A model generated the notes under the pieces. That model saw only the letters and a list, made by a program, of their open reading frames with translations. It searched no databases and had not been told where the DNA came from. From Moraxella nonliquefaciens (lineage in GTDB: Bacteria; Pseudomonadota; Gammaproteobacteria; Pseudomonadales; Moraxellaceae): a DNA stretch of 24,000 nucleotides. The DNA is taken from positions 190,802 through 214,801 of the forward strand of contig NZ_LXTW01000003.1 in the NCBI RefSeq assembly GCF_001679005.1, read 5' to 3'. The stretch's first letter is position 1. Each line of letters starts with the position of its first letter. Shown in pieces: positions 5,111-7,970 of the stretch. The position numbers were made by a program, and so were the translations under genes.

Positions 5111-5138
5111 GTGAATGACTGTAAAAATATGCTAAAAT
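5111..5138 (+). promoter_or_regulatory. Putative extended -10 promoter for the LRR/HKD-J operon
   Basis: TGCTAAAAT (5130-5138) is an extended -10 (TGn + TAAAAT). A weak -35-like GTGAAT sits at 5111-5116. AAGGA Shine-Dalgarno lies 8 nt before the ATG at 5166. Confidence 0.35.
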
Positions 5139-5165
5139 ATCAATATTAACTTTAAGGACAATCCC

Positions 5166-6575
5166 ATGACCCACGAACTTATCCCTACCCAAACAGGGCT
5201 AACCCTACGCCGTACCGACACGCTGATAAACATTACCAATAAACTGCTCGCCCAAACAGGCATCAAAGGCATTAGCCAGATGAGCGATGATGAGCTGTGG
5301 GAATGGTGGCTTTCGCTTGATGATGAATGGCGGTTTTTATTTTTAAGACAAGGGCTGGAATTGGCGTTATGGATAGATGACGATTGGTATTTTGATGAAA
5401 ATTTTGATTATCAAGTGGGTTTTGATTGGTTCGATAAAGAATTAACTTTTGTGTATGTTAAGGCAATACAGAATTTAACTCGTCTTGATTTATTGGAAAA
5501 CCAAATCCAAGACATTTCGGTATTGGCGAATTTAACTAATTTAACCGAGCTTAATTTATGGGAAAACCAAATCCAAGACATTTCGGTATTGGCAAATTTA
5601 ACCAATTTAACCAGTCTTGATTTACATCATAACGAAATCCAAGATATTTCGGTATTGGCGAATTTAACCAATTTAACCAGTCTTGATTTACATCATAACC
5701 AAATTCAAGATATTTCGGTATTGGCGAATTTAACCAATTTAACCGAGCTTAATTTATGGGATAACCAAATTCAAGATATTTCGGTATTGGCGAATTTAAC
5801 CAATTTAACCGAGCTTAATTTATGGGATAACCAAATTCAAGATATTTCGGTATTGGCGAATTTAACCAATTTAACCAGTCTTAATTTAGGGGATAACAAA
5901 ATCCAAGATATTTCATCATTGGCGAATTTAACTAATTTAACTAGTCTTGGTTTACCATATAACCAAAATAACCAAATCCAAGATATTTCTGTTTTGGTGA
6001 ATTTAACTAATTTAACCAGTCTTAAGTTATGGAATAACCAAATCCAAGATATTTCTGTTTTGGTGAATTTAACCAATTTAACCAGTCTTTATTTACAATA
6101 TACCCAAATCCAAGACATTTCAGCATTGGCGAATTTAACCAATTTAACCAGTCTTGATTTATATCTTAACCAAATCAAAGACATTTCGGTATTGGCGAAT
6201 TTAACCAATTTAACCAAGCTTTATTTATTGGATAACAAAATTCAAGATATTTCGGCATTGGCGAATTTAACCAATTTAACTGGTCTTGTTTTATGGGATA
6301 ACCAAATTCAAGATATTTCGGTATTGGCGAATTTAACCAATTTAACCAATTTAACCAGTCTTAATTTATATCGTAACAAAATTCAAGATATTTCGGCATT
6401 GGCGAATTTAACCAATTTAACCAGTCTTGCTTTATGGAATAACCAAATTCAAGATATTTCTGTTTTGGCAAGCCTAATAAAATTAGAACATCTTTATTTA
6501 TCAGAAAACCCAATCAATCCCCAAGATATAGAATGGCTACAACAAAAACTTCCAAATTGTAAAATTATATTTTGA
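5166..6575 (+). CDS. Leucine-rich repeat protein (about 16 SDS22/internalin-like 22-residue LRRs), no signal peptide
   Basis: 469 aa. After a ~110-aa acidic, Trp-rich N-terminal region (EWWLSLDDEWRFLF..DDDWYFDENFDY) come tandem units with consensus NQIQDISVLANLTNLTSLxLxx. The C-terminal cap ends NPINPQDIEWLQQKLPNCKIIF. There is no N-terminal hydrophobic signal or lipobox. Confidence 0.85.
   Translation: MTHELIPTQTGLTLRRTDTLINITNKLLAQTGIKGISQMSDDELWEWWLSLDDEWRFLFLRQGLELALWIDDDWYFDENFDYQVGFDWFDKELTFVYVKAIQNLTRLDLLENQIQDISVLANLTNLTELNLWENQIQDISVLANLTNLTSLDLHHNEIQDISVLANLTNLTSLDLHHNQIQDISVLANLTNLTELNLWDNQIQDISVLANLTNLTELNLWDNQIQDISVLANLTNLTSLNLGDNKIQDISSLANLTNLTSLGLPYNQNNQIQDISVLVNLTNLTSLKLWNNQIQDISVLVNLTNLTSLYLQYTQIQDISALANLTNLTSLDLYLNQIKDISVLANLTNLTKLYLLDNKIQDISALANLTNLTGLVLWDNQIQDISVLANLTNLTNLTSLNLYRNKIQDISALANLTNLTSLALWNNQIQDISVLASLIKLEHLYLSENPINPQDIEWLQQKLPNCKIIF
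5499..6509 (+). repeat. 66-bp in-frame tandem repeat array (about 15 units) encoding the LRRs
   Basis: Units are near-identical at DNA level. 5697-5762 and 5763-5828 are 100% identical 66-mers. Two units are 75 bp because of 9-bp slippage: aaccaaaat/aaccaaatc near 5960, and three rather than two copies of aatttaacc at 6330-6356. Confidence 0.92.
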
Positions 6576-6585
6576 GAAATAAAAA

Positions 6586-7959
6586 ATGCAAACCCAAGCC
6601 CTTTTTGACAACATCCCAAGCCATATCATCAATGAATTAAACCAAGCCATGCACAGTATTTATATTGCGGTGGCGTGGTTTACACGCACGGATATTTTTG
6701 AAGTGTTATTACAAAAAGCCAAAGCAGGCGTTACGGTACAGCTTGCCCTATCTAATGACCGTATCAACCGCACCGCTCCAATCCGCCATGATGAGCTGTC
6801 AGCAGTTGCCAACCGCCATACCCACTGGATAGGGGACGGCAATAAGCGGTTAATGCACCATAAATTCTGCGTGATTGACAATCAAACAGTGATTACAGGG
6901 TCATTTAATTGGAGCAAAAAAGCCGAAACGAGCAATCATGAAAACATCACAATCAGTCAAGATGAACTGTTGGCAAAGGCGTTTTGTCAAGAATTTTATA
7001 AGATTATTGGCAAGCCCATGCCAAGCGATGAAAAGCCATTGCCGATTGCTCAGATTATGAAACGCATGGAGATTTTAAAAAATTATGTCATCTTGGAGGA
7101 TTTGGACGACATTAGCCGTGAAAATCAAAAATTACAACAATTTGACAGCGAGCAGGACATTAGCGAGATTTATCACGCCATTAAAAAAATGCAGTTTAGC
7201 CATGCCATTGGACTGATTGATGATTTTATCAAAAAATATCATACGATTGCGGTTTATGCTGATGCTGATATTATGGCGTTAAAATTGGAAATTCGGCTAT
7301 TAGAACATGAAATTAATTTATACGACAGCGAAAAGGCGGAATTAGAAAAATTGCTTGCCGATTTTAATCATCAGCACAGCATGAATTTGGGCGATTTAAT
7401 CAGTGAAATTTTATCTTTACGAAAACAGCTTGCCAAACAGCAAGGCGACCAAAATGCCTATGATGAAGCCAAACAAGACGAGCAAACATTTAATGAGCAG
7501 TTGGATAAAGAAAAAGCCAGAACGCATTATAGACTAAATGCCGATGAACAAAAACTCCTAAAACAAGCCTACCGCAAAGCCAGTCAAATATGCCACCCCG
7601 ACCGTGTCAATGATGAACAAAAGGACATGGCAATGGCGGTGTTTAATGAATTGCGACAAGCGTATGAACAAAACGATTTAAAAACAGTGGAGCGGATACT
7701 TGATGATTTGCAAAAAGGGATATTTAAAGCTCGCTCGGAGACCGTCAGCCAAAACGATAAATTAAAACTCATCAAAACCCAATTATCCCAAAAACTGGAT
7801 AATCTTAAAGTTATCATTGATGAGATTAAGGCAAGCCAAAGCCATCAAGTGGTAAGCAGTATTGATGATTGGCAAGAGTATTTTGATAATCAAAAAATAG
7901 AGCTGATAAGGGAGCGAGACAAGCTAAGAGAGCTGATAAAAAACACGGACGCAAAGTAG
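6586..7959 (+). CDS. Fusion protein: N-terminal single-HKD PLD/Nuc-like domain, central coiled-coil, C-terminal J (DnaJ-like) domain
   Basis: 457 aa. The HKD motif HHKFCVIDNQTVITGSFNWS (aa 91-110, nt 6856-6915) fits HxK(x)4D(x)6GSxN. Aa ~150-310 are heptad-rich and charged. The J-domain helix II-HPD-helix III is LLKQAYRKASQICHPDRV...AVFNELRQAYEQNDL, with HPD at nt 7594-7602. It starts 10 nt after the LRR gene stop. Confidence 0.8.
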   Translation: MQTQALFDNIPSHIINELNQAMHSIYIAVAWFTRTDIFEVLLQKAKAGVTVQLALSNDRINRTAPIRHDELSAVANRHTHWIGDGNKRLMHHKFCVIDNQTVITGSFNWSKKAETSNHENITISQDELLAKAFCQEFYKIIGKPMPSDEKPLPIAQIMKRMEILKNYVILEDLDDISRENQKLQQFDSEQDISEIYHAIKKMQFSHAIGLIDDFIKKYHTIAVYADADIMALKLEIRLLEHEINLYDSEKAELEKLLADFNHQHSMNLGDLISEILSLRKQLAKQQGDQNAYDEAKQDEQTFNEQLDKEKARTHYRLNADEQKLLKQAYRKASQICHPDRVNDEQKDMAMAVFNELRQAYEQNDLKTVERILDDLQKGIFKARSETVSQNDKLKLIKTQLSQKLDNLKVIIDEIKASQSHQVVSSIDDWQEYFDNQKIELIRERDKLRELIKNTDAK

Positions 7960-7970
7960 CACAAATACCC

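Follow-up and report, generated by a model that had tools for sequence, protein, structure and literature searches.

A candidate sensor–effector conflict module in Moraxella: a leucine-rich repeat protein encoded beside a nuclease-like J-domain protein

A 24,000-nucleotide stretch of a 2.28-Mb Moraxella nonliquefaciens genome (G000:C3:190802-214801; hereafter the window) carries, between recG and an RND operon, two adjacent genes on the + strand. The first encodes a leucine-rich repeat (LRR) protein, P0001, and the second a protein, P0002, which combines a phospholipase D (PLD)/Nuc-type domain, a helical region and a J domain (PLD-J). We give about even chances to the reading that the pair is a horizontally mobile two-gene sensor–effector conflict module, most likely directed against phages or other mobile elements and working by direct sensing. 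The module is widespread and apparently undescribed. This reading is built on the identities of the domains and the conservation of their motifs, the coupling of the two genes, an N-terminal leader common to the sensors, the swapping of sensors, a patchy distribution with decay, and alternative cargo in the same genomic slot. A defence role, physical docking of the two proteins, nuclease activity, the recruitment of DnaK and the order of these events are what we infer from them. An earlier note, made from the letters of the window, had proposed an LRR sensor that controls a chaperone-coupled nuclease. The coupling of the genes supports this, but the proposal was too narrow, as LRR proteins are one of several sensor classes, which include tetratricopeptide repeat (TPR) and WD40 proteins and others.

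P0002 has more than 640 homologues, the best named ones being from M. bovis, M. equi and M. caprae. The earlier assignment of a PLD domain with a single HKD motif was borne out, as Pfam PLDc_2 matched residues 14-139 (4e-23) and the AlphaFold2 (AF2) model of the protein (mean pLDDT 77) has the alpha-beta fold of Nuc and other PLD proteins. When the model was aligned with the Protein Data Bank (PDB) using VIA-align, the matches included Nuc (1bys; Z 19.4, root-mean-square deviation 2.2 over 139 aa), NucT (6ehi; Z 19.2), Zucchini (Z 17.6) and BfiI (Z 12.1), and Foldseek returned TM values of 0.72-0.74 (0.74 for NucT). On the evidence of this model, the domain is placed structurally in the Nuc-like PLD group. 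The HxK(x)4D and GSxN (G105-S106-x-N108) motifs are present and invariant in alignment A1. We refer to the coil and J region of P0002 (residues 150-457) as CJ; in 59 proteins of the PLD-CJ type, the H of the nuclease motifs is kept in 55, K in 58, D and G-S in all 59, N in 57 and E in 58. With one HKD per chain, a dimer is needed for a complete active site, as is established for Nuc and BfiI, and by analogy the HKD of P0002 is predicted to be a nuclease half-site that would need a second copy for activity. The helical region that follows, for which the structure search returned only generic helical-bundle matches, is a candidate scaffold for dimerisation and sensor docking.

The J domain with an intact HPD, also claimed earlier for this protein, was found again by two routes. 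Pfam DnaJ scored 28.0 bits against a cut-off of 27.8 (residues 321-361, profile positions 13-51 of 63), and the 22-sequence family profile A2, when searched against the PDB, found J domains only (4e-8 to 6e-3). In the AF2 model, the HPD of P0002 is flanked by predicted helices at residues 319-336 and 343-361. C-H-P-D is invariant in A1 and A2, and across the 59 PLD-CJ proteins the H and the P are present in 59/59 and the D in 58/59; the sole protein with HPE is that of locus L103, from a Chitinophaga metagenome-assembled genome (MAG). A J domain with an intact HPD is predicted to be able to switch on the ATPase of DnaK.

P0001 had been described as nearly pure LRR behind an acidic, Trp-rich N-terminal region. 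Both of these parts stand, but a conserved leader at the N-terminus had been missed. The protein matched Pfam LRR_4 (2e-78) and LRR_8 (2e-41), and its 15 tandem LxxLxLxxN repeats are encoded by a 66-bp tandem array at 5472-6469 (14.8 copies, Tandem Repeats Finder score 1184); PADLOC returned no match for it. The Trp-rich N-domain is kept beside PLD-J in Moraxella, in the M. osloensis group and in others. Amino-acid entropy within the repeats is high (1.75-2.55 bits) at the x positions of LTNLTxLxLxxN (6, 8, 10 and 11) and low (0-0.4 bits) at nearly all scaffold positions, with 1.09 bits at positions 13 and 19. At the nucleotide level, the repeats are 61% identical to each other within the variable codons and 91% elsewhere, and the scaffold codons have gathered synonymous differences. 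In established LRR structures the x positions form the concave, ligand-binding face, and the diversified positions of the P0001 solenoid would be those that face a ligand. Between G000 and M. caprae G193 (L037/L043), the CJ regions are 92% identical and the PLD parts only 72%, and the number of LRR repeats is 15 in G000 and about 5 in G193; the contrast suggests mosaic recombination inside the operon.

The CJ region was found in 1,030 cluster representatives at E <= 0.001 in a search of 1.84 billion proteins and in 162 of 36,145 genera, mainly of Bacteroidia and Gammaproteobacteria; a protein atlas returned only clusters named 'J domain-containing / hypothetical'. In the listed representatives and loci, the architecture met most often is PLD-CJ, of about 455 aa. 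Other forms are a CJ protein of about 300 aa with no further domain, natural CJ-ankyrin and CJ-LRR fusions, and a Lon_C-like-PLD-CJ fusion. A weak CJ match was also seen in a 1.5-kb 'phage' record from E. coli O157:H7. For the study of gene neighbourhoods, 80 related loci of four phyla, from Moraxellaceae, Pasteurellaceae, Bacteroidota, Campylobacterota and one deltaproteobacterial MAG were gathered with a narrower CJ alignment (A3), the broad A2 being too diverse. In these loci the CJ gene nearly always has a same-strand neighbour at a gap of -10 to +30 nt. The 48 upstream partners include 15 TPR, 13 LRR and about 10 WD40/beta-propeller proteins, and the downstream neighbours are often repeat proteins as well. 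A census of LRR_4 as the neighbour (6/90, 6/66 and <3/6 by band) looked like weak linkage because the partners span several repeat classes.

Partners of differing repeat class have in common a leader of about 28 residues, which reads LIPTQTGLTLRRTDTLINITNKLLAQ in P0001 (consensus ..NsLIPiGStgLVRVgNSIsITNKLL, alignment A5). A hidden Markov model (HMM) of the leader matched 72 of the 1,450 stop-to-stop open reading frames (ORFs) in the 80 loci. Sixty-two of these matches are in ORFs immediately beside the CJ gene, and the other 10 are no more than 2.7 kb away on the same strand; in some loci they make up arrays with as many as four sensors. Of the 75 loci with an intact CJ gene, 56 have a leader match in one or more adjacent ORFs. 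The HMM was trained on 38 of the leader matches; the downstream partners were not part of the training set. In the genome of the window, P0001 is the sole match of the HMM among 5,012 ORFs (E 9e-10, against 0.027 for the ORF ranked second), and orphan LRR paralogues elsewhere in Moraxella genomes are without the leader. We propose that the leader may be a docking or addressing motif for all sensor classes. A complex prediction of the sensor N-terminus (A5) with PLD-J (A1) gave a score of 0.01 (mark 0.32), which counts neither way for binding.

Some loci carry unusual leader-bearing proteins. At L103, four consecutive leader-bearing ORFs follow PLD-CJ at +4, +657, +1526 and +2377 nt, an arrangement that resembles a row of alternative sensors. 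At L046:7011-8258, in a MAG of Enhydrobacter or the M. osloensis group, the gene directly downstream of PLD-CJ encodes a 416-aa protein that consists of the nucleotide-binding domain (NBD) of Hsp70 only (PF00012, 3e-64) and starts with the leader of the sensors; this was seen at one locus only, from the same genome fetched twice. A distant PLD-CJ subfamily of about 490 aa, with 27-30% CJ identity and the partner downstream, is present in four Moraxellaceae genomes (L030-L033; G071, G133, G117 and G052). In L030-L032 this partner has 486-670 aa and a leader-like N-terminus (…QVEAANTRLAISSQLTQ…), and Pfam gave no convincing domain in it; one of these loci adjoins a phage-type integrase.

As a rule, closely similar effectors are paired with unrelated sensors. 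When 77 pairs of effectors with at least 85% identity were compared, the sensors could be aligned after removal of the leader in only 23, and in L072 and L074 the effectors are 97% identical and the sensors unrelated. The effector tree keeps two phyla separate, and near-identical effectors are found across orders of Bacteroidota, for example in a Paludibacter MAG and in Lunatimonas.

Alternatively, the two proteins may form a conflict module that is triggered indirectly, as a guard of the chaperone system. The J domain would keep DnaK on the leader or on the hub and so hold the nuclease off, and an infection that titrates or hijacks DnaK/DnaJ, by making phage proteins in bulk or by phage replication factors that depend on DnaK, would free it; the repeat proteins would set which disturbances count. 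The HPD is conserved more strictly than the catalytic His, and the leader is an extended hydrophobic/basic peptide, the kind that Hsp70s bind (PMC8215388). This guard explanation deserves to be taken seriously, since phage sensing by bNACHT25 requires DnaJ and is indirect, without binding of the trigger (PMC12169576). However, the cassette-like swapping of sensors and the hypervariable ligand-facing residues favour direct recognition of diverse ligands over the monitoring of one host process, and we regard the guard explanation as unlikely.

Another possibility, also raised in the earlier note, is that the two proteins are secreted eukaryote-like effectors (LRR and PLD/J) that act in animal host cells. 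Moraxella and Pasteurellaceae are animal mucosal bacteria, and other pathogens inject effectors that contain LRR, PLD and J domains. However, most of the carriers found are free-living or environmental Bacteroidota, Psychrobacter and Campylobacterota, and the sensors change among LRR, TPR and WD40 proteins yet keep a leader that is tied to the neighbouring gene. With a 19-residue Kyte-Doolittle window, neither a transmembrane-like stretch nor a hydrophobic segment of the signal-peptide type was found in P0001 or P0002 (maximum scores 0.96 and 1.2), as had been stated before, and the internalin models of NCBIfam scored far under their cut-offs. This explanation is thus disfavoured, and we consider it very improbable.

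The conflict-module reading also draws on the fate of the pair among relatives of the host. The LRR gene proved to be a conserved neighbour, being directly upstream of every PLD-J homologue examined in Moraxellaceae with at least 46% identity in the coil and J region, and the same layout is found in the M. osloensis group, Psychrobacter and Ursidibacter (a Pasteurellaceae locus that was read through). The LRR N-domain adjoins the coil and J region in all closer Moraxellaceae carriers, and in Actinobacillus the upstream partner bears the leader and LRR motifs. Only 21 of the 301 Moraxellaceae species drawn, in 6 of 21 genera, have the coil and J region, and several of these copies are pseudogenes or scars. 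G004, G193 (M. caprae), G020, G011 and G206 have an intact PLD-J. In G024 (the M. bovis type strain) it is a pseudogene, and in G001, G002 and G127 it is cut down to a 3' scar of about 70 codons beside the RND operon; in G008, scraps of both of its ends are left at this place. Wherever PLD-J is present the LRR gene is upstream, and it decays together with PLD-J.

The recG|RND junction itself is syntenic across the genus, and what it holds is variable, which gives a positive answer to the earlier question of whether the pair sits in a variable region. In G001 the slot is occupied by a GmrSD/HEC-06 type IV restriction enzyme (L019:6783-8516; PADLOC 1e-223) and in G002 by a PD-(D/E)XK_4 protein (L021:9278-10357), each of which adjoins a scar of about 65-70 codons left from the 3' end of PLD-J. 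The gap in G013 measures just about 100-300 bp, and from its size the slot is taken as empty. That the scar was retained as the carrier of the RND promoter was considered and dropped, as this promoter is intergenic.

Individual copies of the pair differ in other ways. In M. bovis CCUG 2133, the type strain (G024; L018/L044), both genes contain stops and the LRR N-terminus is duplicated; other M. bovis records have an intact PLD-J of 459 aa. G021 (L022:3671-5468) has a PLD-less variant pair, in which a 307-aa LRR protein is followed by a 289-aa CJ-only protein with an interrupted HPD (LHKPD). In G004 (L015:7548-8217) the LRR gene lies in two overlapping frames beside an intact PLD-J, the cause being either a frameshift or misassembly of the repeats.

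A tight two-gene operon with a 10-nt gap, an effector of the nuclease type, and mobility and decay are also what would be expected of a toxin-antitoxin-like addiction pair. Here the PLD nuclease would be the toxin and the leader-tethered repeat protein the antitoxin, DnaK would aid folding or turnover, and defence would be secondary. Unlike dedicated antitoxins, the partners are large (240-780 aa), have many unrelated folds and are at times present several per locus. In addition, the LRR gene of G004 seems frameshifted with PLD-J intact, a state that a free toxin should make intolerable, unless it is an assembly error. An addiction pair is, in our estimate, decidedly unlikely.

There are several points that weigh against a conflict module with a J-domain nuclease at its centre. 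The Pfam DnaJ score of P0002 is barely at the threshold, and the structure search with the whole model mostly reflected its PLD domain and, for residues 320-384, gave no match beyond small designed helical proteins (Z ~7.5). Among the listed representatives of the family, about one in three is CJ-only and has no nuclease, and 4 of the 59 PLD-CJ proteins are without the His of the HKD motif and keep the HPD. Because such CJ-only forms and His-less PLD variants exist, what is conserved at the core may be a repeat protein with a J scaffold and not the nuclease. In Salmonella enterica (NZ_CP149222.1, L027:4992-6167) a 391-aa 'DnaJ family molecular chaperone' (WP_001033457.1), with 32% identity to CJ, stands alone between pheP and rclC without a repeat partner. 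The family is rare on plasmids and phages, and, as the check suggested earlier found, no PADLOC model covers the gene pair. The flanks of 33 loci, in which 132 flanking ORFs were scanned with Pfam and PADLOC, are heterogeneous with known defence genes scattered among them; for this reason, and because the scan had no control set, an enrichment in defence islands is not demonstrated. In favour of the module, and apart from these 33 loci, the Psychrobacter immobilis copy lies between genes for DUF3584, Abi_C, an MmeI-type restriction-modification enzyme and a helicase, and one M. osloensis-group locus, the same that carries the Hsp70-NBD-only protein, adjoins a DrmD-like SNF2 helicase.

Part of these points would fit a specialised co-chaperone or adaptor outside immunity, in which the repeat protein would pick cellular clients, the J scaffold would pass them to DnaK and the PLD domain would be an accessory. 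It would account for nuclease-less CJ-only forms that are paired with repeat proteins, for the His-less PLD variants and for the stand-alone CJ-like chaperone amid ordinary Salmonella genes, and class C J proteins are often client-specific adaptors (PMC8215388). It would not account for a distribution as patchy as 21/301 species with pseudogenes and scars, for restriction and nuclease genes that replace the pair at the same slot, for near-identical effectors with unrelated sensors and transfer across orders, or for HKD motif residues that are intact in 55-59 of 59 proteins. A role of this kind outside immunity appears unlikely to us.

If the pair is a conflict module with direct sensing, the following sequence of events can be envisaged. 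The leader would dock the sensor onto the helical scaffold, and at rest the HKD domains would be held apart or occluded. Once an invader protein binds the LRR surface, DnaK, driven by the J domain and acting probably on the leader or on the junction between sensor and hub, would remodel the complex. Two HKD domains could then build a composite active site and degrade DNA. Host Hsp70 would in this way stand in for the built-in STAND/AAA NTPase switch of NLR/Avs-type systems. A wider generalisation, that this is an immune architecture without an NTPase, in which a J-domain nuclease hub borrows the host Hsp70 as its switch and takes leader-addressed plug-in sensors (LRR, TPR, WD40, ankyrin or Hsp70-NBD), is put forward tentatively as a possible but doubtful extension.

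If this were true, a housekeeping Hsp70 would, through a built-in J domain, be the energy-dependent switch of a defence system, and the recent, unexplained finding that bacterial immune sensing depends on DnaJ would gain a direct mechanistic handle. Recognition by bacterial LRRs with diversified ligand-facing residues would run parallel to that of plant and animal LRR receptors, without the NTPase of NLRs. The pair would also be a natural plug-and-play arrangement, in which a short leader couples arbitrary repeat binders to a nuclease, and it could be useful for the study of sensor exchange and for engineering.

The layout of the locus is given in Table 1. The two ORFs and their 10-nt spacing were confirmed, and the pair is AT-richer than its flanks, as had been noticed, with a GC content of 0.326 for the LRR gene and 0.396 for PLD-J compared with 0.497 for recG, 0.502 for the gene of the RND membrane-fusion protein (MFP) and 0.419 for the genome. 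For the claim that the pair has its own extended -10 promoter, TGcTAAAAT was found 58 nt past the recG stop, followed by an AAGGA ribosome-binding site and the ATG of gene 1, but the consensus scan passed over it on account of its poor -35; a promoter upstream of the pair is plausible. The right boundary was correctly identified as the independent promoter of the next operon, which reads TTGACA-16-TGTTACAAT (TTGACA-16-TG-TACAAT) and has 11 of 12 consensus positions and the TG extension. It falls inside the 65-nt intergenic stretch ahead of the MFP gene. Since this gene really begins at the ATG at 8025, the TTG at 7971 that is listed as an 'ORF start' is in fact where the -35 hexamer begins.

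Table 1. Features of the gene pair and its borders, in window coordinates
Feature	Position	Strand	Basis
Putative extended -10 (TGcTAAAAT) of the two-gene operon; -35 weak	5130-5138	+	read from sequence
Gene 1, LRR protein P0001, 469 aa, putative sensor, predicted cytoplasmic	5166-6575	+	ORF, Pfam
N-terminal leader, residues ~4-32, ELIPTQTGLTLRRTDTLINITNKLLAQTG	5175-5261	+	alignment A5, leader HMM
Acidic, Trp-rich N-domain, residues ~38-100, ahead of the repeats	5277-5465	+	translation
15 internalin-type 22-residue LRRs, hypervariable positions in the LxLxxN strand	5466-6473	+	repeat parse, entropy
Gene 2, PLD(Nuc-type)-helical-J-domain protein P0002, 457 aa, putative effector/hub	6586-7959	+	ORF, Pfam, AF2
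Single-HKD PLD/Nuc-like, predicted nuclease domain, residues 1-143	6586-7014	+	Pfam, structure match
HxK(x)4D catalytic motif, H91-H92-K93...D98, then GSFNWS and E119	6856-6879	+	alignment A1
Helical region: four-helix bundle (~148-225) and long helices (227-311)	7027-7533	+	AF2
J-domain core, residues ~318-380; HPD (H337-P338-D339) at 7594-7602	7537-7725	+	Pfam, profile A2
C-terminal helices, residues ~386-457; last ~70 codons persist as a scar in genomes without the pair	7741-7956	+	AF2
Promoter of the RND operon, right boundary, outside the module	7971-7998	+	consensus scan

Other neighbours in the window are recG, the RND genes, pilC/pilD, ruvB and an insertion sequence (IS). The last is an IS607-like element on the - strand (12457-14168, GC 0.358) between the RND pump and ruvB, composed of a serine recombinase (Resolvase, 13575-14168) and a TnpB/OrfB_IS605 protein with a Cas12f-like TNB domain (12457-13596). 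In the relatives G004, G024, G001 and G002 the pump is directly followed by ruvB without this element.

The earlier note knew of no named system with this composition, and we found no description of a PLD-J and repeat-protein system in the full-text literature or in PADLOC-DB 2.0, the former with partial journal coverage, so that an earlier description is possible. P0002 resembles Nuc, NucT, Zucchini and BfiI in its fold, in the intact HxK(x)4D, GSxN and E motifs and in having one HKD per chain. Nuc and NucT are small enzymes that are periplasmic or secreted, whereas P0002 is predicted to be cytoplasmic and is fused to about 310 residues of helical scaffold and J domain; against the NCBIfam NucT models it scores 32-45, with cut-offs of 211-351. 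DISARM DrmC and Mokosh MkoB likewise have a PLD domain in a defence context, which is putative here, and P0002 has partial PADLOC matches to DrmC (4e-12) and MkoB (7e-4, over 77 residues only). To our knowledge, neither of them has a J domain or a repeat-protein partner. The pair was not assigned to DISARM, as DrmC_I scored 28.7 against a cut-off of 133 and no DrmA, DrmB or methylase is in the window, nor to Mokosh, as the window has no MkoA and its sole helicase is the housekeeping recG. For P0001, the best NCBIfam models are the Listeria internalins InlA and InlH, which have the same 22-residue repeat type. Assignment to the internalins was rejected, since the scores were 259.5 against a cut-off of 1600 for InlA and 198.8 against 1050 for InlH, and there is no hydrophobic N-terminus. 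Unlike internalins, P0001 has no signal peptide or cell-wall anchor, is predicted to be cytoplasmic, and has its own leader and Trp-rich domain.

With the STAND/NLR systems (Avs, bNACHT) the pair has in common a variable repeat sensor (TPR, WD40 or LRR) and an effector of the nuclease type, with sensors that are diversified and exchanged. In addition, bNACHT25 relies on DnaJ (PMC12169576), which is a precedent for the module proposed here. It differs in that the sensor and the effector are separate polypeptides, probably joined by the leader, and in that a J domain is built into the effector; as Pfam, NCBIfam and PADLOC gave no NTPase domain in P0001 or P0002, the pair was not placed among these systems. 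The closest concept, a chaperone ATPase as the switch in a diversifying conflict system, is found in the chaperone-based systems predicted by Kaur, Burroughs, Iyer and Aravind in 2020 (PMC7159879). They comprise the MoxR-vWA ternary systems and those of a GAP1-N2 GTPase with HSP70 and GrpE, the latter also including HSP70 proteins that consist of the NBD only and proteins with a fused DnaJ or TPR part, and actinobacteria and firmicutes are the main groups in which they occur. The pair does not belong to them by composition, as MoxR-vWA or a GAP1-N2/DO-type GTPase is absent from it and from the Pfam-scanned genes of the window, and 'HKD' or 'phospholipase D' is absent from the main text of PMC7159879. 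Those systems, as set out there, centre on a GTPase or MoxR, whereas the hub here is a PLD-J fusion. Compared with the known sensor–effector conflict modules, the pair would therefore have a new wiring, with a J domain, a leader and no NTPase.

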